Position numbers and translations under genes: made by a program. 64,000 bases of DNA from Escherichia phage vB_EcoM_LMP33, in sequence record MK482689.1. One strand, given 5' to 3'. The notes beneath the pieces were generated by a model. The model was not told the DNA's origin. It made no database searches and saw only the letters and a list, made by a program, of their open reading frames with translations. Shown one piece after another: positions 3,343 through 39,694 of the stretch; the first letter of the stretch is position 1, and every line of letters begins with the position of its first letter.

Positions 3343-4086
3343 ATGAGTAATATTATCGCATTTACTGGAAAGGCGCGTTCTGGAAAAGACACCTCATGTT
3401 CTATTGTTAAGAATATTCTAGAAGATGAGTATGGCTACAATGTTGCAGTAATGGCCTATGCAGACAACCTTAAACTCTCTGCATCAAAGATATTTGACTT
3501 GACTTGGAATGACCTGTACGGTGAAACTAAAGAGACTCCACAGGTTTTTGATTTATCATACCCTGAACTGATGTTCAAAGTCACAGAAGCTATGGAGTTT
3601 ACTTTCAGAGGTGAACGTTATCATACGGACTTTAAACTTATGTCAGAGTTAACCGGACGACTGATTATGGAACTAAAGAAGGTTGCTAAACCAACTTTAT
3701 TAACACGTCTGGGGTTTAGTAAAAAGTATAAATTCTCATCAAGACAGGTTCAACAGATTTGGGGTACTGAAGTTATCCGTAAAGTTATGGGTGACAAATT
3801 CTGGGCTAAAGACCTCGAAAAACGAATGGCAAATTTCTTTGACGTTTGCTCACTTAAGAATCAATACGGTGTTGTTTTAATCAGTGACTTAAGGTTTGAC
3901 TCTGAAGCTGAGTGGCTGAGCAGATTTGCACACCAAACTATCGAAGTAAAAAGAGACAATGTGGATAAGGTTTCGTCACATGTTTCAGAAAATGGGATTT
4001 CTACCAAATATGCGCGTGACATTATTCATAATAATGGTACTCTTGCAGACCTTGAGAACAAGCTAAGAGCCATCATTAAAGTTTAA
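3343..4086 (+). CDS. deoxynucleoside monophosphate kinase (T4 gp1-like)
   Basis: N-terminal P-loop FTGKARSGKDT resembling T4 dNMP kinase SGVKRSGKDT; length about 247 aa; sits in the nucleotide-metabolism module. Confidence 0.55.
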   Translation: MSNIIAFTGKARSGKDTSCSIVKNILEDEYGYNVAVMAYADNLKLSASKIFDLTWNDLYGETKETPQVFDLSYPELMFKVTEAMEFTFRGERYHTDFKLMSELTGRLIMELKKVAKPTLLTRLGFSKKYKFSSRQVQQIWGTEVIRKVMGDKFWAKDLEKRMANFFDVCSLKNQYGVVLISDLRFDSEAEWLSRFAHQTIEVKRDNVDKVSSHVSENGISTKYARDIIHNNGTLADLENKLRAIIKV

Positions 4087-14982: not shown

Positions 14983-17127
14983 ATGAACAAAGTACAGATT
15001 ATTAAAAAGAATGGCTCACTTGAAGAACCTGATATCAAAAAAGTTTTAGCAGCAGTCACAAAGTCAGCTAACAGAGTTGGTTATAAAGAGCTTCCACCAG
15101 ATGTTACTCAAGCTCTTGAGTCAGCATTTATGAGGATTCTGGTAAAGTCCACTAAGCAGAATAATTTGCTAATTTCGGTAAATGATATTCACAGTATTGT
15201 TGAGGGTGCTTTGGCAGAAGTCAATCACGAGATTTATGAGTCTTACTCAACATATAGAAATTACCGTAAAGAGGTTGCTCAAAATTGGGATGAACTCTAC
15301 CAGAAGACTAAAGATACACTCTTCTTAGGTGACCGTGAAAATGCTAACTTTGACAGCAGTTTAATTTCTACGAAAGGTTCAATTATCCGTGGTTACCTGA
15401 CTAAAGAAATCTTTAAACAGTATCATCTAACACCAGAGGAACTTGAAGCCATTGAGAAAGGCTTTATCTATATCCATGATTTAAGAGACCTGATTTTTGG
15501 TGGTATTAACTGTTGCCTGTTTGACATTGGTAAAGTACTAAAAGGTGGCTTTGAAATGTCCGGCATTGAGTACTGTGAACCTAAATCTGTACTGTCAGCG
15601 TTGCAGGTTATTGGTGACGTAGTACTTTCAGCAACTGCACAGCAATTTGGTGGTTTTACTTTAGCAGAGATTGATAAGGTACTTGTACCGTATGCTAAGA
15701 AGTCTCTACGCTATCATGCTGAGAAAGCATCATCTTATGGTATTCCTAAAGAGCATTACCACAATTATGTAATGGAGCAGTTACAAATTGAACTGACTCA
15801 AGGTTTTCAGTCACTTGAGATGAAACTAAATACCGTGCCTTGTAGCCGTGGTGATTTTGCATTCACAACTTTGACATTCGGGTTACTTGACTCAGATATG
15901 TCCAATGAAGATAACCGACTGCAATATATGATTGCAAGTACTCTCCTAGATGTTCGTATGAATGGTCAAGGTAAGAGCAAGAAACCTGTTGTATTCCCTA
16001 AACTGGTTTATATTTATGACCAGAAGAGACACAATGAGAATATCTGTCAAGGTCACCTGTACAGTAAAGCTATTGAGTGTTGCTCTAAAGCAATGTATCC
16101 AGATTTCTTAAGTGTATCTGGTCATGGTGCTGTAGCAGAGGCTTTTGAGCGTTCTGGTAAGGTAATTTCACCGATGGGTTGCAGAGCCTTCTTATCTCCG
16201 TATCTTAACGAGAATGGGGAAGAGTTCTACGTTGGTCGTGCTAACATTGGTGCTGTATCTTTGAACTTACCAATGATTTACCAGTATTCTAAAGAGAGTG
16301 GTTTAGATTTCTGGAAAGAGCTTGATAAGTACCTAGAGATGATTCGCAGCTTCCACAAGAAACGCTACGAAATGATTGCTAATATGCCAGCAAGTTCTAA
16401 CCCTCTTGCATTCACACAAGGTGGTCTGTACAAAGGGACTAAGAAACCTACTGACAAGGTTGGTTGGGATATCGTGAAGTCCTTCACAGCTTCTTTTGGG
16501 GTTACTGCTCTTGATGAGCTATCTGTTCTTGCTGAGGGTAAACGACTTCATGAAGTTGGAAGCTATAGTTTTGCATACGATGTTCTGGCGTACATCAACA
16601 TGAAAACTGAAGAGTTTAAAAATGAAGATGGCTTCTTGTATGCAGTATATGGTACTCCAGCAGAGTCATTGTGTGGAACTCAGCTAAAACAGTTCAGAGA
16701 TATGTTTGGTGTTATCAAAGGCGTTTCTGACAAGGAATACTTTACAAACAGTTTCCATATGAATGTTGCAGCAAACATCTCACCATTTGAGAAGCAGGAC
16801 TTAGAAGAACCCTTCTTCCATATCTGTAGAGGCGGTAGAATCCAGTATGTAAGAGTAGCTAACCCAGAAAACTTATCAGCACTTAAGAGCTGTATTACAA
16901 GAGGAATGTTGAAAGGTTTCTATCAGGGACTTAACTTTGACTTAGCAATCTGTGAACATTGTGGTAACAGGCCAAAGGCTGATGTTGAAGAATGTGAAGT
17001 TTGTCACTCACATGATATCTCTGTGATTAACAGGGTGTGTGGGTATCTTGGATGGACTAAGATTAAAGGTGAATCCCGAATGAACGATGCAAAAATCGCT
17101 GAGATTCGTGACAGAGTTTCTATGTAA
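14983..17127 (+). CDS. nrdD: anaerobic ribonucleoside-triphosphate reductase
   Basis: 714 aa; C-terminal zinc ribbon CEHCG...CEVCHSHD and glycyl-radical motif RVCGYLG. Confidence 0.9.
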   Translation: MNKVQIIKKNGSLEEPDIKKVLAAVTKSANRVGYKELPPDVTQALESAFMRILVKSTKQNNLLISVNDIHSIVEGALAEVNHEIYESYSTYRNYRKEVAQNWDELYQKTKDTLFLGDRENANFDSSLISTKGSIIRGYLTKEIFKQYHLTPEELEAIEKGFIYIHDLRDLIFGGINCCLFDIGKVLKGGFEMSGIEYCEPKSVLSALQVIGDVVLSATAQQFGGFTLAEIDKVLVPYAKKSLRYHAEKASSYGIPKEHYHNYVMEQLQIELTQGFQSLEMKLNTVPCSRGDFAFTTLTFGLLDSDMSNEDNRLQYMIASTLLDVRMNGQGKSKKPVVFPKLVYIYDQKRHNENICQGHLYSKAIECCSKAMYPDFLSVSGHGAVAEAFERSGKVISPMGCRAFLSPYLNENGEEFYVGRANIGAVSLNLPMIYQYSKESGLDFWKELDKYLEMIRSFHKKRYEMIANMPASSNPLAFTQGGLYKGTKKPTDKVGWDIVKSFTASFGVTALDELSVLAEGKRLHEVGSYSFAYDVLAYINMKTEEFKNEDGFLYAVYGTPAESLCGTQLKQFRDMFGVIKGVSDKEYFTNSFHMNVAANISPFEKQDLEEPFFHICRGGRIQYVRVANPENLSALKSCITRGMLKGFYQGLNFDLAICEHCGNRPKADVEECEVCHSHDISVINRVCGYLGWTKIKGESRMNDAKIAEIRDRVSM

Positions 17128-27076: not shown

Positions 27077-27098
27077 GGCTGCTTCGGCGGCCTTTTTT
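27077..27098 (+). terminator. intrinsic terminator (GGCTGC-TTCG-GCGGCC + TTTTTT)
   Basis: Hairpin with UUCG loop and T-run after rIIB. Confidence 0.6.
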
Positions 27099-27159
27099 AT
27101 TTGTATTTTGTGCAGAGTGCTGTATAATTGTTGTCACGATAAACTAAACAGGAGAACCA

Positions 27160-28908: not shown

Positions 28909-29256
28909 ATGACATTTAAAGAGTTCTGTCAAGCTACTTTCATAATTGTTTTCTTAGTTGGGGCGGGTGTCTGGGGAGGGTACTCTTACAGAGACTACCA
29001 AGTTGCTGAAACTGAGCTAAACAATCAAAAGCTCATAAGTGTTGCTAAAGATGCTTATCAGGAAGGATTAGTTACACTGAGCGCCAATTACAAAAATGAT
29101 TTGAAAGATGTGCTTGCTAAGAATAAGCACACAAAAGAGGTACTAACATATGAAAAAACTAAGCCAGAGTTTTATAATGTTTGTGTTACTGATAATTATG
29201 TCAGGATGTTCAACGAACAAAGTGAACAGTACATTCAAAAACTCCCAAGTAAGTGA
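28909..29256 (+). CDS. candidate i-spanin (type II inner-membrane protein)
   Basis: 115 aa, single N-terminal TM helix (FIIVFLVGAGVWGGYSY) then charged helical region; its 3' end overlaps a lipoprotein ORF in another frame. Confidence 0.35.
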   Translation: MTFKEFCQATFIIVFLVGAGVWGGYSYRDYQVAETELNNQKLISVAKDAYQEGLVTLSANYKNDLKDVLAKNKHTKEVLTYEKTKPEFYNVCVTDNYVRMFNEQSEQYIQKLPSK

Positions 29257-30216: not shown

Positions 30217-30409
30217 CTTCTGTAAAGATTGTTCTATCGAAATGTTCGGACGTGATACAGGTGACTTAAAAGGTCTTATCACTGAAGATGACTTTAAAGC
30301 TGGCTACGCAATGCCAGTAATCTGTGAAGGTTGTGGGTGCATCTGGGTAGACCACGAAGGGCAACGTGTAAAACCTTCAGAAGATAAAGAATCTTGGGAG
30401 AGATGTTAA
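30209..30409 (+). CDS. hypothetical Cys-rich small protein
   Basis: ATG at 30209 (MADFCKDCSIEM...CEGCGC); the track's longer version from 30131 is less likely. Confidence 0.25.
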   Translation: MADFCKDCSIEMFGRDTGDLKGLITEDDFKAGYAMPVICEGCGCIWVDHEGQRVKPSEDKESWERC

Positions 30410-31195
30410 ATGGGTATTGTAAAAATCATCAATGGCGATATCTTTGCAGCATTTGATAAAGGTAAGTTTGACATCATTGGTCACGGTTGCAACTGTATGA
30501 ATTTAATGGGTGCAGGTATCGCTGACAAGATTTCTAAACTTTACCCAAAAGCATATGAGACCGATACAGAAGTTTACCTCTATGCAGGTGGTATAGGTCA
30601 CAAACCCTGTGAAAATCTACTGGGTAATTTCTCTGTAGCACGTTTAGAACAAGGCCGTATAGCTAACCTTTACACTCAGCTTAAGACTGGTAAAGATGCC
30701 CGATACAGTGCTTTAGAGTCATCTTTGAAACAACTTAACAGATACTGTGAAGTCAATCAGTTGAAGAAAGTTGGGTTACCTATGATTGGTGCAGGTATCG
30801 GTGGACTAGACCCTCAAGCCGTCACAGTTATCATTAATCAGGTGATGAAGAGTGTAGATGTGTATCTTTATGTCTACGAAGGAGAGATGTACCACAAGTT
30901 ACGCTCAGGTTGGAAGAACTACTGTGAACCAGAATACTTTGCAGGTGTAGCAGTGTTCACAGATAACGCAGTTACCCTCTTCAGACGAAGAAAAGGTAAG
31001 ATACATCAAAGTAACCCTCCGGTTGAAAAGATGTCTCTAAGTAACGCTCTAGTTACCCACCTGTCGAAGAGCAATCACAGGATTGCAGTAACATTTGGCA
31101 GTGATGCAGATACTTATATCTATGCAAGAACTGATGAGGATATCGAGACAGTTTTCTCTTCACCAGAAGTTACCTTCTTAGACGCAAAGAACTAA
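30410..31195 (+). CDS. macro-domain protein (ADP-ribose binding/processing), putative
   Basis: N-terminus IINGDIFAAFDKGKFDIIGHGCNCMNLMGAGIA matches the macro-domain pattern (GDI...IVN.AN...G.GVA.AI). Confidence 0.45.
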   Translation: MGIVKIINGDIFAAFDKGKFDIIGHGCNCMNLMGAGIADKISKLYPKAYETDTEVYLYAGGIGHKPCENLLGNFSVARLEQGRIANLYTQLKTGKDARYSALESSLKQLNRYCEVNQLKKVGLPMIGAGIGGLDPQAVTVIINQVMKSVDVYLYVYEGEMYHKLRSGWKNYCEPEYFAGVAVFTDNAVTLFRRRKGKIHQSNPPVEKMSLSNALVTHLSKSNHRIAVTFGSDADTYIYARTDEDIETVFSSPEVTFLDAKN

Positions 31196-31264
31196 GAAAC
31201 TCTGTAGGATATTCACAATAGCCTAAGCCTTTCTTATCTGGTAAATTTTTCAGGTAAGGAGGGC

Positions 31265-31448
31265 TTTTTCATTTCAGAATTGTGCAGGTAGAGTTCTGTA
31301 GAGAAATCTGTAGAGAGAATTTTGAACTCCAAAGAGAAAATTCATTTTCAAACTGTGCAGATAATCTCCAAAGAGCTTTTTCATTTTCAAAACGTGCAGA
31401 CCACACTCAGGTCGGGCAAGAAAAATCATTTTAGATTTGTGCAGGTAG
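31265..31448. repeat. four direct repeats (A/T-run)TCATTT(T)CA(A/G)A(A/C)(T/C)(T/G)GTGCAG, plus interleaved TCTGTAGAGA and CTCCAAAGAG duplicates
   Basis: Copies ending in GTGCAG at about 31287, 31360, 31400 and 31446; no credible ORF in the region. Confidence 0.6.
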
Positions 31449-31460
31449 GTTTTTATAGAG

Positions 31461-31503
31461 AGCCAGACCAACCCCTCTCCCCCTCTTACTCCCCCTCTCC
31501 CCA
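31461..31503. other. polypyrimidine C-rich tract (CCCCTCTCCCCCTCTTACTCCCCCTCTCCCC)
   Basis: Unusual C-rich low-complexity run in an AT-rich genome, immediately after the repeat cluster. Confidence 0.5.
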
Positions 31504-31654
31504 AAAGTCAAGAGAAAAATTTGTAGCGGATTGAAAAATAATTCTTGATTTGTGTTCTGTTTTGTGGTAGTTGTGTGCGCCCGTTTCATTACAGTTTTGC
31601 CAAAAATATTTTTAAAATTTTTTCTTGACTCTTTGAACGTGGTTATCTAGTATT

Positions 31655-31716
31655 TGCATCAACGGGGAGGGAATGACCTTCCCCACTAAATAAAGTCCTA
31701 AACTGGAGATTCAAAA
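31655..31716 (+). promoter_or_regulatory. type A leader element (hairpin GGGGAGGG-AATGA-CCTTCCCC + conserved RBS), preceded by TTGACT-N17-TAGTAT
   Basis: Conserved CAACGGGGAGGGAATGACCTTCCCCACTAAATAAAGTCCTAAACTGGAGATTCAAAAATG; one of 7 copies. Confidence 0.55.
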
Positions 31717-32100
31717 ATGGCATATCGTGCACCTAAATTCATCAACAAAGACAACTTTCGCAACGCACTGGAGAAGTCACTTGATGAGAATTTTAAAGGT
31801 AACATTATCGTTGTTCACGCATTCAATTTTAAGTATGATGTAAACGGGAATAGAATCAACCATTACACGGCAACCATGTTAGATGGTACACTTTCAAGTG
31901 AAAAAGCCGTACTAAATGCACTGGCAGGACGTGGAAAGGTATTAGTAAGATGTGATAAGAGACGTTATCAGGGCGGCGCATATGGTTATGATGATGCTGT
32001 TTACCATCTTGAAAATATGGGCTATCAAGTAGAAAAAGCTGGAGCATCACAAATCATCGGCAGCGATGGTTATGTAACTATCTTCAAAATTAACAAATAA
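31717..32100 (+). CDS. hypothetical protein (cassette ORF 1)
   Basis: 127 aa; ATG 7-8 nt after conserved GGAG RBS of a type A leader. Confidence 0.45.
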   Translation: MAYRAPKFINKDNFRNALEKSLDENFKGNIIVVHAFNFKYDVNGNRINHYTATMLDGTLSSEKAVLNALAGRGKVLVRCDKRRYQGGAYGYDDAVYHLENMGYQVEKAGASQIIGSDGYVTIFKINK

Positions 32101-32186
32101 AGTACTTTACAAGGGGCTTATAGTTCGATAAAGTAAGCCCCAGATAAAGAGCTTTACCACTCAATCCTAAATTGGAGAACTTAAAA
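32101..32186 (+). promoter_or_regulatory. type B leader element (hairpin GGGGCTTA..TAAGCCCC + AGATAAAGAGCTTTACCACT + conserved RBS)
   Basis: Begins within the stop region (..AATAAAGTACTTTACA) of the upstream ORF; possible TTTACA-N17-TAAAGT promoter overlapping the hairpin; one of 6 copies. Confidence 0.5.
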
Positions 32187-32480
32187 ATGGCTATTATCAA
32201 AAACGTTGTAATTACTGCAAAGACTCGTGATGACGCTCGCGTTATGGCTAAAAAGTTATGCGGGAAAGTGGTTGACAACGGAAAACAATCTGCTGTAAGG
32301 TGGGGCGTGAAGGTTGATAAACAGTTGAAGTTAAAAAATTCACCGATAAACCTTTTTACATGTGTAAACACTATCGGGAAGACAAATGTATACACGAAAA
32401 AGGCATACATTAGACGCGTAGCATTAACATCCCCCATTCGTACAATGAGAAGTTATGCAAAGCTGAAAATTAACAAATAA
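32187..32480 (+). CDS. hypothetical basic protein (cassette ORF 2)
   Basis: 97 aa from ATG at 32187 (MAIIKN...), the start conserved within the leader repeat; track start at 32172 is a TTG. Confidence 0.45.
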   Translation: MAIIKNVVITAKTRDDARVMAKKLCGKVVDNGKQSAVRWGVKVDKQLKLKNSPINLFTCVNTIGKTNVYTKKAYIRRVALTSPIRTMRSYAKLKINK

Positions 32481-32565
32481 AGTACTTTACAGGGGGCTTA
32501 AAAGCTGATATCTTAAGCCCCAGATAAAGAGCTTTACCACTAAATCCTAAACTGGAGATTCAAAA
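32481..32565 (+). promoter_or_regulatory. type B leader element
   Basis: AGTACTTTACAGGGGGCTTAAAAGCTGATATCTTAAGCCCCAGATAAAGAGCTTTACCACTAAATCCTAAACTGGAGATTCAAAAATG. Confidence 0.5.
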
Positions 32566-33467: not shown

Positions 33468-33793
33468 TGACTGGTATCACTGCAATCATTGCCATTTTCG
33501 CGCTATATAAGGCATATAAAGCCTATAATCTGGCAAGTAAGGCAATCACACAACAGGTTAATAATAACCTTGTAATGAGCTTTCTAGAGCGTTTAAGTGA
33601 TGAACAATTAAAACGGCTAGAAATGAGCTTTAGATTCAGGGCGAGAACTTATCAAATCAGTGACATTTTCAAAGATAATTTTCAATTAGTCGATGATTAT
33701 AATTCTCTGATAAATGCTTTAAATATTAGTGACTTAAAAGATTATCACGCTGTAATTGTTCAAGAATTGAGCAAACGAAAACAAAACTGTTGA
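33461..33793 (+). CDS. hypothetical membrane protein (cassette ORF 5)
   Basis: 110 aa, N-terminal TM helix (MLMTGITAIIAIFALY); start overlaps the upstream stop; no leader repeat. Confidence 0.4.
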   Translation: MLMTGITAIIAIFALYKAYKAYNLASKAITQQVNNNLVMSFLERLSDEQLKRLEMSFRFRARTYQISDIFKDNFQLVDDYNSLINALNISDLKDYHAVIVQELSKRKQNC

Positions 33794-38046: not shown

Positions 38047-39694
38047 TCGACGCAACGGGGCTAAATAGCCCCAGATACCTGAAAAGCTCCTTCTCATAGG
38101 GGCTTTTTTACGTCTATGTAATAGCCTCTATACAACCCTTTCCCTTTCCTTCCTAGAATCTATCCCACTAATTCGATAGAATCTATCTCATACCTTAAAA
38201 AGCAATAACTCTATAGTCTACTCTATAACCTTTTATCAAATCAACTTAAATAAAAGCCAATAACCCCAGAAAGGGGATGGCCCATTTAAATGCTCTATAA
38301 AGCTCTATAACAGCCTTATCAACCTAACTTAAGGGATTGCATTAACCAACCTTAAAAAGCTCTTTACAGGGCTTTATAGAGGCTTAAAAGAATCTTATAA
38401 GGTTATAAGCTTTATTATCTCGTTAGCTATCTTGTGAATATCTAAAAAGGGCTTGTTAGTGTCTTAAAAGTATGTTATAGGGGCTATAAAGTTACTTTGA
38501 AGTTGCTTAAAAGTTACGTAAATGCTAGCCCCCTTAACATTTTCTTAACAATTTCTTAACAATCCCTACATAGTTATGCTTGTTAGCAACTTGTTAGCCC
38601 CTTGTTAAATCTCTGTTAAGACAACGTAAAAGCCTTGTAAGAACCTTTGACATAGCCTTTAAAGCCCCTGTAAAGCCTTATAAAGAGGTATCTGTACAGT
38701 TGGGGTGTAATTACTAGGAAGAGGCTTAAAAGAGCTTATAAAGAGCTATAGAGAGCTTTTAAGAGGTATGTTTAGAGAATCACTAAGAGGGAAAGGGAAC
38801 GATAAGAAAAGAGTAGTGACCATGTTAATAGCTTGTTAAAAAGATTAAACACTTGTTAGAAACTTGTTAATTATCTTAACAAAATAACTCTTAAAAATTA
38901 ACTTGTTAGCTCTTGTTAGTCATCTGTTAAGATTCTGTAAAGCCTATGTATCAACTGTTAAGAACTTGTTACAACCTTGTTAGTTCTGTTAAGAATCTGT
39001 TAAGACCTCTGAAGAGATGTTAAGAACTTGAGAGAGTTGTTAAGGAATTGTTAATGATATTTAAAATTTTGCAAAGTACTTGTAAGGGAGTTGTTAAGGG
39101 CTACCAAGCAGATATACATCTTCTACAGATATTTTTCAGTTCCTTCAAAGACCCTAAAAAATGACTTGATAGTCCTATTTTATAAAAATTTTAAGATTCT
39201 GAATAATTACCTATACAGCCTTTCTAAAATACAGGTAATAACAGGCTTATAAGATACCTTGTTAGTACCGTGTTAGACCTTGTGAGATAAGGTCTGTGAA
39301 GATATTCCTGTTAAGTTTGTTAAAACAGTCTATATAGAGGCTTAGTAATACCTAGTGAACACCTATAGAGAGTGTCATAGCTAACCTAGAGATTAAGAGG
39401 TGTATAGGAGCTTCTAAGAGGGTATAGAGAGGTGGTTAAGGTGATTGTATAGGTTGTTAAGAAGGCTTGTTAGAGGGCTTGTTAGAAGGGTTATACAGAG
39501 GGCTATTAAGACCACTAGATAGATACTAAGATACTATATAGTACTATATAACTATATATAGAGAGTAAGCTTAAGAAGGTTGTTAAGAAGGGTAGATATT
39601 TTGTTCACATATGATGGTGACCCAGAGGTTGGGACAACCGATAAAATTTTATAAAAATTAAAAAGCCCCCAATTAAGGAGGCTCTTAAGATATT
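38047..39694. repeat. about 1.65-kb ORF-free region dense in short degenerate repeats ((C)TTGTTA(G/A), CTGTTAAG, TATAAAG, CTTAAAAG; tandem TTCTTAACAA x2 near 38543-38564)
   Basis: No ORF of 60 aa or more on either strand; dozens of TTGTTA(A/G)-type motifs; lies between convergent plus and minus gene clusters. Confidence 0.7.
39661..39686 (-). terminator. intrinsic terminator for minus-strand cluster
   Basis: On minus strand: AGCCTCC..GGGGGCT hairpin + TTTT just downstream of the stop at 39695. Confidence 0.45.

Follow-up and report, generated by a model that had tools for sequence, protein, structure and literature searches.

A conserved array of four direct repeats in a gene-free gap of Felix O1-type phages

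The DNA analysed here (the window) is a stretch of 64,000 nucleotides (nt) from Escherichia phage vB_EcoM_LMP33 (MK482689.1), a Felixounavirus genome, with 25 tRNA genes and a G+C content of ~39%. Felix O1-type phages are classic Salmonella typing phages with wide use in biocontrol, and the BASEL model phage Bas63 belongs to this group. In the window, a gene-free gap of 521 nt lies between the macro-domain 'phosphatase' gene (30,410-31,195; Pfam Macro) and a 127-codon gene (ATG at 31717), the latter of which opens a run of small 'cassette' genes, each with its own promoter. The gap holds an array of four direct repeats, and our analysis revealed that this array is real, strongly conserved, unique in the genome and non-coding, with a dispensable mirror repeat as its neighbour. 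Matches to the region from 30,400 to 32,500 were found in 236 records, with an identity of 99.4% for Escherichia phage vB_EcoM_LMP25 and of 92-98% for many Felix O1/wV8-like phages. The coding share of the Felix O1 genome is 90.6% (PMC3185647).

Repeats and other features of the gap

Using the pattern TCATTTYNNANNTGTGCAG on the plus strand, we found matches at 31269, 31342, 31381 and 31426, and the sole match outside the array in the 64 kb was a site with 2 mismatches at 16607. The chance expectation was 0.62 matches, and none of 100 shuffles reached 5 matches. The repeats start 73, 39 and 45 nt apart, and they are interleaved with duplicates of TCTGTAGAGA (31295-31304 and 31307-31316) and CTCCAAAGAG (31327-31336 and 31366-31375). 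A repeat search of the window recovered the same families (D1 to D3), and all copies of the GTGCAG-type repeat and of the duplicates lay where a sequence-only reading of this region had placed them.

The repeat core is TCATTTY-N6-GTGCAG, and the unit extends to ~32 nt including flanks. Information along the unit peaked at a G six bases upstream, at TCATTTY and at GTGCAG, giving two main blocks ~12 bp apart; a short A- or T-run, plus a conserved G, precedes both blocks, and the units are devoid of dyad symmetry. The four copies were mutually 66-83% alike with spacers of 13-24 nt, and a CRISPR-like array, which has identical repeats of 28-37 nt and unique spacers about as long, was rejected on these values. 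A 32-nt weight matrix was built from 39 distinct copies of 11 phages and scanned on the complete LMP25 genome (88,409 bp), where the four array copies scored 36-45 bits and the runner-up 6.6 bits. This runner-up score belongs to a lone repeat-like TTTTTTATTTGTATTTTGTGCAG at 27,078-27,130, past the rIIB terminator, which overlaps a promoter with a perfect TATAAT and which several Felixounavirus loci retain at a distance of ~4.2 kb upstream of the array.

Save for unrelated chance matches, the array was absent from 185,579 bacterial and archaeal species genomes, and it was not found in plasmids; with no relevant copies there, we rejected the possibility that it was borrowed from host genomes or plasmids. 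An unrelated 10-kb viral contig (IMGVR_UViG_3300018080_002802) carries, at ~3,890-3,990, two 50-nt tandem repeats holding both blocks (AATCATTTTAACATAGTGCAG) just upstream of a promoter and gene, and these may be a chance occurrence or a distant analogue.

From left to right, the gap contains the following parts:

31225-31266, plus strand: rho-independent terminator of the macro-domain gene, a 17-pair stem followed by TTTCATTT
31261-31292, plus strand: repeat 1, core TCATTTCAGAATTGTGCAG at 31269-31287, 45.4 bits, in all clades
31295-31336, plus strand: long gap between repeats 1 and 2, holding TCTGTAGAGA twice and the first CTCCAAAGAG
31334-31365, plus strand: repeat 2, core at 31342-31360, preceded by CTCCAAAGAG, 41.0 bits
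31373-31404, plus strand: repeat 3, core at 31381-31399, preceded by CTCCAAAGAG, 36.4 bits
31418-31449, plus strand: repeat 4, core at 31426-31444, 38.4 bits
31472-31502, no strand assigned: C-rich mirror repeat CCCCTCTCCCCCTC-TTA-CTCCCCCTCTCCCC, a strain-variable module
31503-31551, no strand assigned: highly conserved 49-nt block AAAAGTCAAGAGAAAAATTTGTAGCGGATTGAAAAATAATTCTTGAT, defined by inverted repeat I1 and alignment
31596-31653, plus strand: AT-rich upstream element and early sigma-70 promoter P1 (TTGACT-17-TAGTAT) of the first cassette gene
31664-31684, plus strand: hairpin GGGGAGGG-AATGA-CCTTCCCC in the 5' untranslated region (5'-UTR), before the ribosome-binding site and ATG 31717

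The terminator, which is annotated in the wV8, KhF2 and ASO1A records, folded at -23.6 kcal/mol (z = -4.6) as plus-strand RNA and at -10.8 kcal/mol (z = -1.4) as minus-strand RNA, and its T-tail runs into the start of repeat 1. Repeats 1 and 2 are 73 nt apart versus 37-45 nt for the other copies, and the gap between them, conserved within Felixounavirus only, is probably a decayed repeat unit. At the right-hand side, the stretch from 31,500 to 31,640 reaches 85% AT over 40 nt (top 0.1% of the window) and the 97th percentile over 60-100 nt, and it doubles as the upstream element of P1. The P1 layout, including the ...ATCAACGG start region, is shared with the cassette promoters at 33790, 34656 and 37376, and P1 appears in the ASO1A annotation as a promoter and in that of wV8 as DR_6. 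The 5'-UTR hairpin folded at -15.2 kcal/mol (z = -3.8).

Beyond the left border, the 3' end of the macro gene (30,970-31,179) has in-frame internal repeats of its own, comprising three copies of AGTTACC with spacings of 81 and 117 nt as well as a pair of 27-nt repeats 30 nt apart.

Conservation of the array and exchange of its neighbours

A sensitive BLAST search with the 521 nt gave 291 phage records, and in the Erwinia phages (Kolesnikvirus) the match was restricted to query positions 146-248, which correspond to repeats 2-4. The array was located in the same position and orientation, after the macro gene, in Felixounavirus, Suspvirus, Mooglevirus, Kolesnikvirus and a fifth clade (loci L062, L098 and L099). 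Copy number ranged from 3 to 5 across clades, and the four genera have four copies each in the same orientation. Spacings were 73/39/45 in Felixounavirus (73/39/43 in wV8), 75/41/45, 77/39/45 or 73/39/45 in Suspvirus and Mooglevirus, and 37/37/39 in Kolesnikvirus, whose units end in TGTGCATAG. The fifth clade is more divergent (contigs 063805 and 048813) and carries a 148-residue macro gene followed by about five copies of TCATTTTAAAAACGTGCATAGG; its macro protein is devoid of the C-terminal ~100 residues.

Loci were also collected via the macro protein, independently of the repeats, and the array was present in 27 of 27 Ounavirinae loci fetched in this way. It was absent after 2 distant macro homologues and after 77 other macro-gene loci in a pattern scan of IMG/VR. 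The same scan yielded a three-copy variant, the Si3 type, represented by two phages. Their three repeats have spacings of 75 and 45, their upstream macro gene is a divergent allele, and the place expected for repeat 2 is taken by the inverted repeat ATCTGT...ACAGAT.

To quantify conservation, identity to the window was compared between the repeat cores, the three codon positions of the macro gene and the spacers. For the Erwinia phage phiEa104, the cores were 73% identical, codon positions 1/2/3 were 49/65/35% and the spacers 33%; for SUSP1, the corresponding values were 87%, 74/77/57% and 64%, and for Suspvirus and Mooglevirus together 86-87%, 74/77-79/54-57% and 63-64%. Since core identity exceeds that of every codon position of the macro gene, the repeat cores are under stronger constraint than the adjacent coding sequence. 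Strong purifying selection acts on the repeats in five clades. The sequence-only reading had let the functional standing of the repeats hang on their conservation in relatives, and we found position, orientation and core kept in all five clades, above the level of the adjacent gene.

The C-rich tract next to repeat 4 behaves differently. Its C content peaks at 26 per 40 nt, the highest count in the window (mean 7.2, sd 2.5), and the 40 nt from 31467 onwards are free of G. The tract is a perfect mirror repeat whose two arms measure 14 nt (31472-31485 and 31489-31502), a homopurine/homopyrimidine H-DNA motif, and its minus strand matches the G-quadruplex motif G4-N3-G5-N7-G5-N3-G4; the tract thus has the mirror arms of the one sequence definition and the four G-runs of at least 3, with loops of 1-7 nt, of the other. 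This is one of two G-quadruplex motifs in the 88-kb genome, the other being GGGGCGGGTGTCTGGGGAGGG on the plus strand at 28,960-28,980, inside the open reading frame (ORF) 28,909-29,256. The tract had been described as a 43-nt polypyrimidine run; a C-rich tract is present, but it consists of two pyrimidine runs (16 and 14 nt) with one A between them and A-containing flanks.

Among 21 unique Felixounavirus sequences across this site, 10 have the tract (form A) and 11 have an unrelated 55-nt segment in its place (form B), which is G-rich on the plus strand at its start. Suspvirus and Mooglevirus show an approximate mirror repeat around CTCTTAC, and Kolesnikvirus has cccaccctcccctc only. Because an unrelated segment takes its place in about half of the sampled Felixounavirus sequences, the C-rich tract is a swappable, dispensable module. 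Its description as compositionally anomalous was borne out by the window-maximum C density, but the element does not require the tract.

The mirror repeat is also a place where assemblies break. Two IMG/VR contigs end at ...CTCTTACTCC (31,492), one of them continuing into a Nextera adapter, and the LMP34 record (MK482690.1) ends at 31,481; ends within or just past the mirror repeat were seen at loci L022, L023, L028 and L037 besides MK482690.1. In the L028 contig, repeat 4 is fused to a sequence that, judged by eye only, looks like mukB of E. coli. These breaks are most economically read as dropout in sequencing or assembly where the DNA is unusual.

A second kind of break lies further right, where homology with many relatives stops just after P1 (~31,667; query position 471/472), at the 5'-UTR hairpin. 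The suggestion of a recombination hotspot thus fits the neighbouring parts, with the break after P1 and the swapped C-rich segment, but not the repeats, which are themselves stable.

Possible roles of the array

ORFs are annotated over the array (31,269-31,534) in the records of wV8, LMP25, Mordin, 3HA14, ESh21, SeKF_13 and UAB_Phi87, and the strand varies by record. In the wV8 record, a gene of 54 codons covers the repeats, and of the nearby elements only DR_6, the promoter repeat, is marked. Open frames of 45-110 codons on both strands, together with several such GenBank annotations (wV8 gene 13 on the plus strand; the Mordin, 3HA14 and ESh21 ORFs on the minus strand), are what a small protein gene with internal repeats would have in its favour. 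However, the open frame changes strand and phase between relatives, the spacings of 73/75/77, 39/41 and 45/43 break a common frame by differences of 2 nt between clades, a ribosome-binding site is absent, and annotators disagree on the strand or annotate nothing. We rejected a protein gene, which would be extremely improbable, and the ORFs drawn over the array in GenBank are almost certainly annotation artefacts. The earlier statement that the region has no credible ORF therefore holds, with no frame conserved among relatives.

An alternative is a leftward non-coding RNA that would start from a minus-strand TTGACT and run through the G-rich tract and the four repeated motifs, acting as a sponge or primer RNA. 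The 49-nt block at 31503-31551 holds back-to-back -35-like boxes, TTGACT on the minus strand (31511-31506) and TTGATT on the plus strand (31544-31549), and the minus-strand box with its A/T-rich upstream element mirrors P1 (inverted repeat I1). The box, the 17-nt spacer and the TA were kept in form A (TAAGAG) and form B (TAGCCT), and Kolesnikvirus has a good minus-strand TTGACC-N18-TATACT. A leftward promoter in this block is possible, its activity being suggested by these boxes. In form A, however, the -10 box TAAGAG is poor, as it is devoid of the key final T. No Rfam family matched at E <= 1, the sole CRISPR match lying inside the macro gene at 18.6 bits versus a 39-bit threshold. RNAalifold with 11 sequences gave no conserved fold (minus strand z = -0.7; on the plus strand z reached -4.1, yet the energy was only -11.3 kcal/mol and the terminator was not recovered), and single-sequence folds of the array gave z = -0.04 (minus strand) and -0.99, showing no structured RNA. 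Since the terminator hairpin is weak on the minus strand, such a transcript would have no defined 3' end. Taken together, we regard a leftward RNA as improbable.

Several known kinds of site were also compared with the repeats and rejected. As sigma-70 promoters, the repeats have no conserved -10 box at a workable distance in either direction; repeat 3 read leftward reaches 9 of 12, and this is not conserved. Host DnaA boxes fit in the Erwinia phages but were rejected for the window, where TTWTNCACA is missed at 2-3 positions by the right blocks and at 3-5 positions by the left blocks, and 9-mers with at most 3 mismatches make up 6.8% of the window, so that the boxes in the array are not distinctive. 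In a comparison by eye, none of CRP, FNR, IHF, OmpR, Chi, KOPS and Tus-Ter fitted both blocks across clades.

The four repeats are likely to be a cis-acting array of binding sites for one sequence-specific protein, because they occur at a single locus in the same orientation, are two-block units under purifying selection, are non-coding and have no RNA structure. The protein could be phage-encoded or host-derived, and the units would assemble one nucleoprotein complex at a single site in the genome. Of the functions proposed in the sequence-only reading (operator sites, a replication origin or a recombination hotspot), binding sites for a protein, be it at an operator or an origin, fit the conservation, but the computed data do not separate operator from origin.

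For the role of such a protein-loaded array, we rate a replication origin as the most likely candidate, though only tentatively. In this model, the array has as its neighbours DNA that opens easily or is unusual, namely the mirror-repeat/G-rich tract and the AT-rich block, as well as promoters, of which P1 is strong, another rightward one weak and the leftward one putative. Transcription from these promoters might help duplex opening or prime the phage primase-helicase and family-A polymerase. This proposal is supported by the genome-unique array, its conservation in five clades, its gene-free setting and the flanking AT-rich DNA and promoters. Tandem, same-orientation two-block sites are the classic iteron form in the origins of lambda, P1 and plasmids. 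In T7, which has a similar replisome, replication starts at promoters and an AT-rich stretch at the inner border of the early region. Iterons are recognized as at least three same-orientation direct repeats of an asymmetric site, and the array has four.

A number of observations weigh against an origin at this place. No initiator gene was found: ten neighbouring proteins searched in Pfam gave only the Macro domain, the gene downstream of the array differs between relatives, and an initiator encoded elsewhere is possible. The GC skew at 31 kb falls from 0.15 to 0.03-0.09 with no minimum or upward step, a signal that transcription direction confounds, and the cumulative GC-skew minimum (~2 kb) coincides with the AT-richest 60-100 nt of the window at 1,816-2,044. 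The gap at 1.8-2.05 kb, between divergent polymerase and primase-helicase operons, is a candidate rival origin site and the better one by composition. In addition, the copies recur every 37-45 nt apart from one gap of 73 nt, an atypical period when set against the regular ~22 bp of classical iterons; the unusual DNA next to the repeats is the tract replaced in about half of the sampled Felixounavirus sequences; and the literature searched contains no experiment that maps an origin or any function to the array. The origin part of the earlier proposal is thus left with neither an initiator gene nor a skew shift, and its operator part with no promoter that overlaps the repeats.

A transcription barrier or operator array is a somewhat less probable role than an origin. 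Here, the bound protein would block or regulate RNA polymerase just past the terminator, insulating the rIIA-macro operon from the early cassettes and/or controlling the neighbouring promoters, and the C-rich RNA would be a Rho loading site for read-through. Consistent with this, the terminator T-tail is overlapped by repeat 1 in four genera, and the array falls exactly at the border of two transcription units. The 40-nt C-rich stretch devoid of G matches a Rho loading site in composition, and promoter-like boxes are found at distances of 60-180 nt. However, none of the conserved -35 and -10 boxes is covered by a repeat (repeat 4 is separated by ~60 nt from the closest conserved -35 box and by ~180 nt from P1), and relatives do not share the degenerate fifth copy at 31533-31554. 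Such sites do not occur at the remaining cassette promoters of this type, the units do not have the dyad symmetry of a repressor-operator layout, the C-rich tract is missing from form B phages, and the fifth clade is without a clear terminator before the array.

The position of the array relative to the genome ends bears on two further alternatives. The terminal repeat of phage Pr103Blw, derived with PhageTerm, is 581 bp (PMC8303462), and it maps to window positions 38,528-39,105 at 90% identity; the REP10 and SPT-1 records also begin or end in this region. For UAB_Phi87, a terminal repeat of 608 bp and Bal31-sensitive SpeI fragments of 4,322 and 2,819 bp, 7,141 bp in sum, were reported by Bardina et al. 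(PMC4837284). In that genome, SpeI sites at a distance of 6,568 bp enclose the homologous 614 nt, and this distance plus the 608-bp repeat amounts to 7,176 bp. The segment 38,528-39,105 is thus the probable direct terminal repeat of the virion DNA. The UAB_Phi87 RefSeq record (NC_027360.1) carries an identical 542-bp duplication at both ends, equal to window positions 53,253-53,794, which looks like an assembly overlap rather than the described 608-bp terminal repeat. Genome ends in the tRNA cluster, as this duplication implies, were rejected, because they predict a 1,134-bp SpeI end fragment that was not observed.

Because the terminal repeat maps to 38,528-39,105, the array lies 7.1 kb inside the terminal-repeat boundary and ~7.6 kb (8.7% of the genome) from the right virion end, and a genome end or pac site at the array itself was rejected. 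Between the array and the right end, there are only small early cassette genes, all directed towards that end. The terminal repeat, which starts GCCCCCTTAACATTTTCTTAACAATTTCTTAACAA, sits in a ~1.4-kb stretch without a credible gene (38,100-39,500), where plus-strand cassettes meet a minus-strand block and which is conserved in 256 phage records. This is a YTGTTAR-rich field, with 28 plus-strand copies of TGTTA[AG] in 2 kb versus at most 3 per kb elsewhere, and with 14 copies of CTTGTTA against 0.11 expected. Three TTAACA copies at 38,535-38,560, a polypyrimidine run at 38,136 and its purine counterpart at 38,785 were also noted in the field.

The array and the terminal repeat are separated by 5-7 kb in the four genera. 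In the fifth clade, an AT-rich stretch with ~11 TTAACA/TAACA copies begins within ~20 nt after the array, and its best matches in the window are the start of the terminal repeat (38,534-38,640) and the same field inverted (alignment score 28 versus 14.2 +/- 2.7 for shuffles). This weak similarity raises the possibility that the array and the YTGTTAR field were once a single control region that cassette genes split later. That the array is the inner boundary of the right-hand 8.7%, a cassette segment driven by sigma-70 promoters, and once formed one terminal control region with the 38.1-39.5 kb field, seems unlikely to us; if true, the repeats would be the cis signal for a T5-like pause or anchoring in DNA entry, or for end processing.

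Such a T5-like boundary, at which the array would mark the inner edge of the terminal early segment and serve as a pause or anchoring site during DNA entry, is likewise unlikely as a role, its position with only outward-pointing small early cassettes beyond it speaking in its favour. The T5 injection stop signal lies at 7.9%, bordering the ~8% of the genome that enters first, in a large repeat-rich untranslated region that is conserved above its flanking genes and has pairs of DnaA-like boxes 3 bp apart (10.1101/866236). Both the position of the array (8.7% versus 7.9%) and its conservation pattern parallel T5. Every repeat of Kolesnikvirus has a right block that differs from the DnaA box TTWTNCACA at one position, and 9-mers this close make up 0.14% of the window; in these arrays (loci L003, L012, L014 and L061, from Erwinia and Salmonella phages), the right block reads CTATGCACA or TTATGCACG on the other strand. 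In the window itself, however, the boxes are as far from the consensus as given above and are not paired as in T5. Large inverted repeats and palindromes are absent, with only the terminator hairpin and the 20-nt, 85% complementary I1 being present, and nothing points to two-step injection in Felix O1-type phages. The fifth-clade array lies ~20 nt from its TTAACA-rich terminus-like stretch with no cassette block between them, and the DnaA model for T5 is itself a hypothesis.

The same fifth-clade arrangement bears on packaging, in which the repeats would be sites for the small terminase subunit that guide the cut at the genome end, as in lambda cosB. CosB has ~16-20-bp direct sites, R1 to R3, spaced at 30-50 bp, with A/T tracts or bendable DNA between them. 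In favour of this role, the 3-5 sites of ~20 bp with A/T tracts in the array resemble cosB, in the fifth clade the array abuts the TTAACA-rich stretch that best matches the start of the presumed terminal repeat, and a small terminase has not been identified in these phages (PMC4837284). In the four genera, however, the distance of 5-7 kb to the terminal repeat (7.1 kb in the window) is too far for a cosB-type role, and we consider a packaging signal very improbable.

Comparison with known systems

In the literature searched on Felixounavirus, we found no description of the array, of an origin or of start-site maps. Twelve direct repeats, each 24 bp or longer, and several promoters are catalogued for Felix O1 in its genome paper, which has neither these imperfect repeats nor an origin (PMC3185647). 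The array is therefore undescribed within this literature, and it is a familiar kind of element in a new variant rather than a new kind; its form itself would not surprise a phage specialist. It is the best-conserved non-coding element found here in the subfamily, and offers a precise 190-bp target for study and a well-defined handle on the origin of replication, the early-to-late regulation and the DNA entry of Felix O1-type phages.

At the right-hand edge, the region resembles the promoter-plus-stem-loop (PeSL) cassettes that, as reportedly described by Arbiol, Comeau and Krisch in 2010, shuffle small early genes in T4-type phages. P1 and the 5'-UTR hairpin (31,596-31,684) likewise belong to a repeated promoter family next to exchangeable small genes, and homology breakpoints fall there. 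The likeness is limited to this edge, the four repeats standing outside that family. The C-rich tract shares with H-DNA and G-quadruplex motifs a perfect mirror repeat and four G-runs of at least 4 on the minus strand; here, it is a sequence motif only, and it is replaced in many close relatives. With lambda cosB, the array has in common a few direct sites of ~16-20 bp, whereas cosB is less than 200 bp from the cut site and the array is 7.1 kb from the terminal-repeat boundary.

Compared with the T5 injection stop signal, the array is likewise untranslated and repeat-rich, lies ~8% from the genome end at the inner edge of small early genes, and is better conserved than the neighbouring, poorly conserved small early genes. 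The arrays of the Erwinia phages carry motifs resembling DnaA boxes, whereas this match fails in the window. The T5 region is inside a 10-kb terminal repeat and has many inverted repeats and palindromes (10.1101/866236), in contrast to a ~0.6-kb terminal repeat 7 kb away and direct repeats only in the present case.

The remaining comparison is with iteron origins (lambda ori, P1 oriR and those of plasmids F, R6K and pPS10). The array differs from these in its period of 37-45 bp with a 73-bp gap versus ~22 bp and in that no adjacent initiator gene was found, and in the window it is without DnaA or IHF sites and without a skew signal. Like them, it clusters non-coding, asymmetric two-block sites of ~20 bp in the same orientation and adjoins AT-rich DNA and promoters, and, as in these origins, its sites are conserved while the spacers drift.

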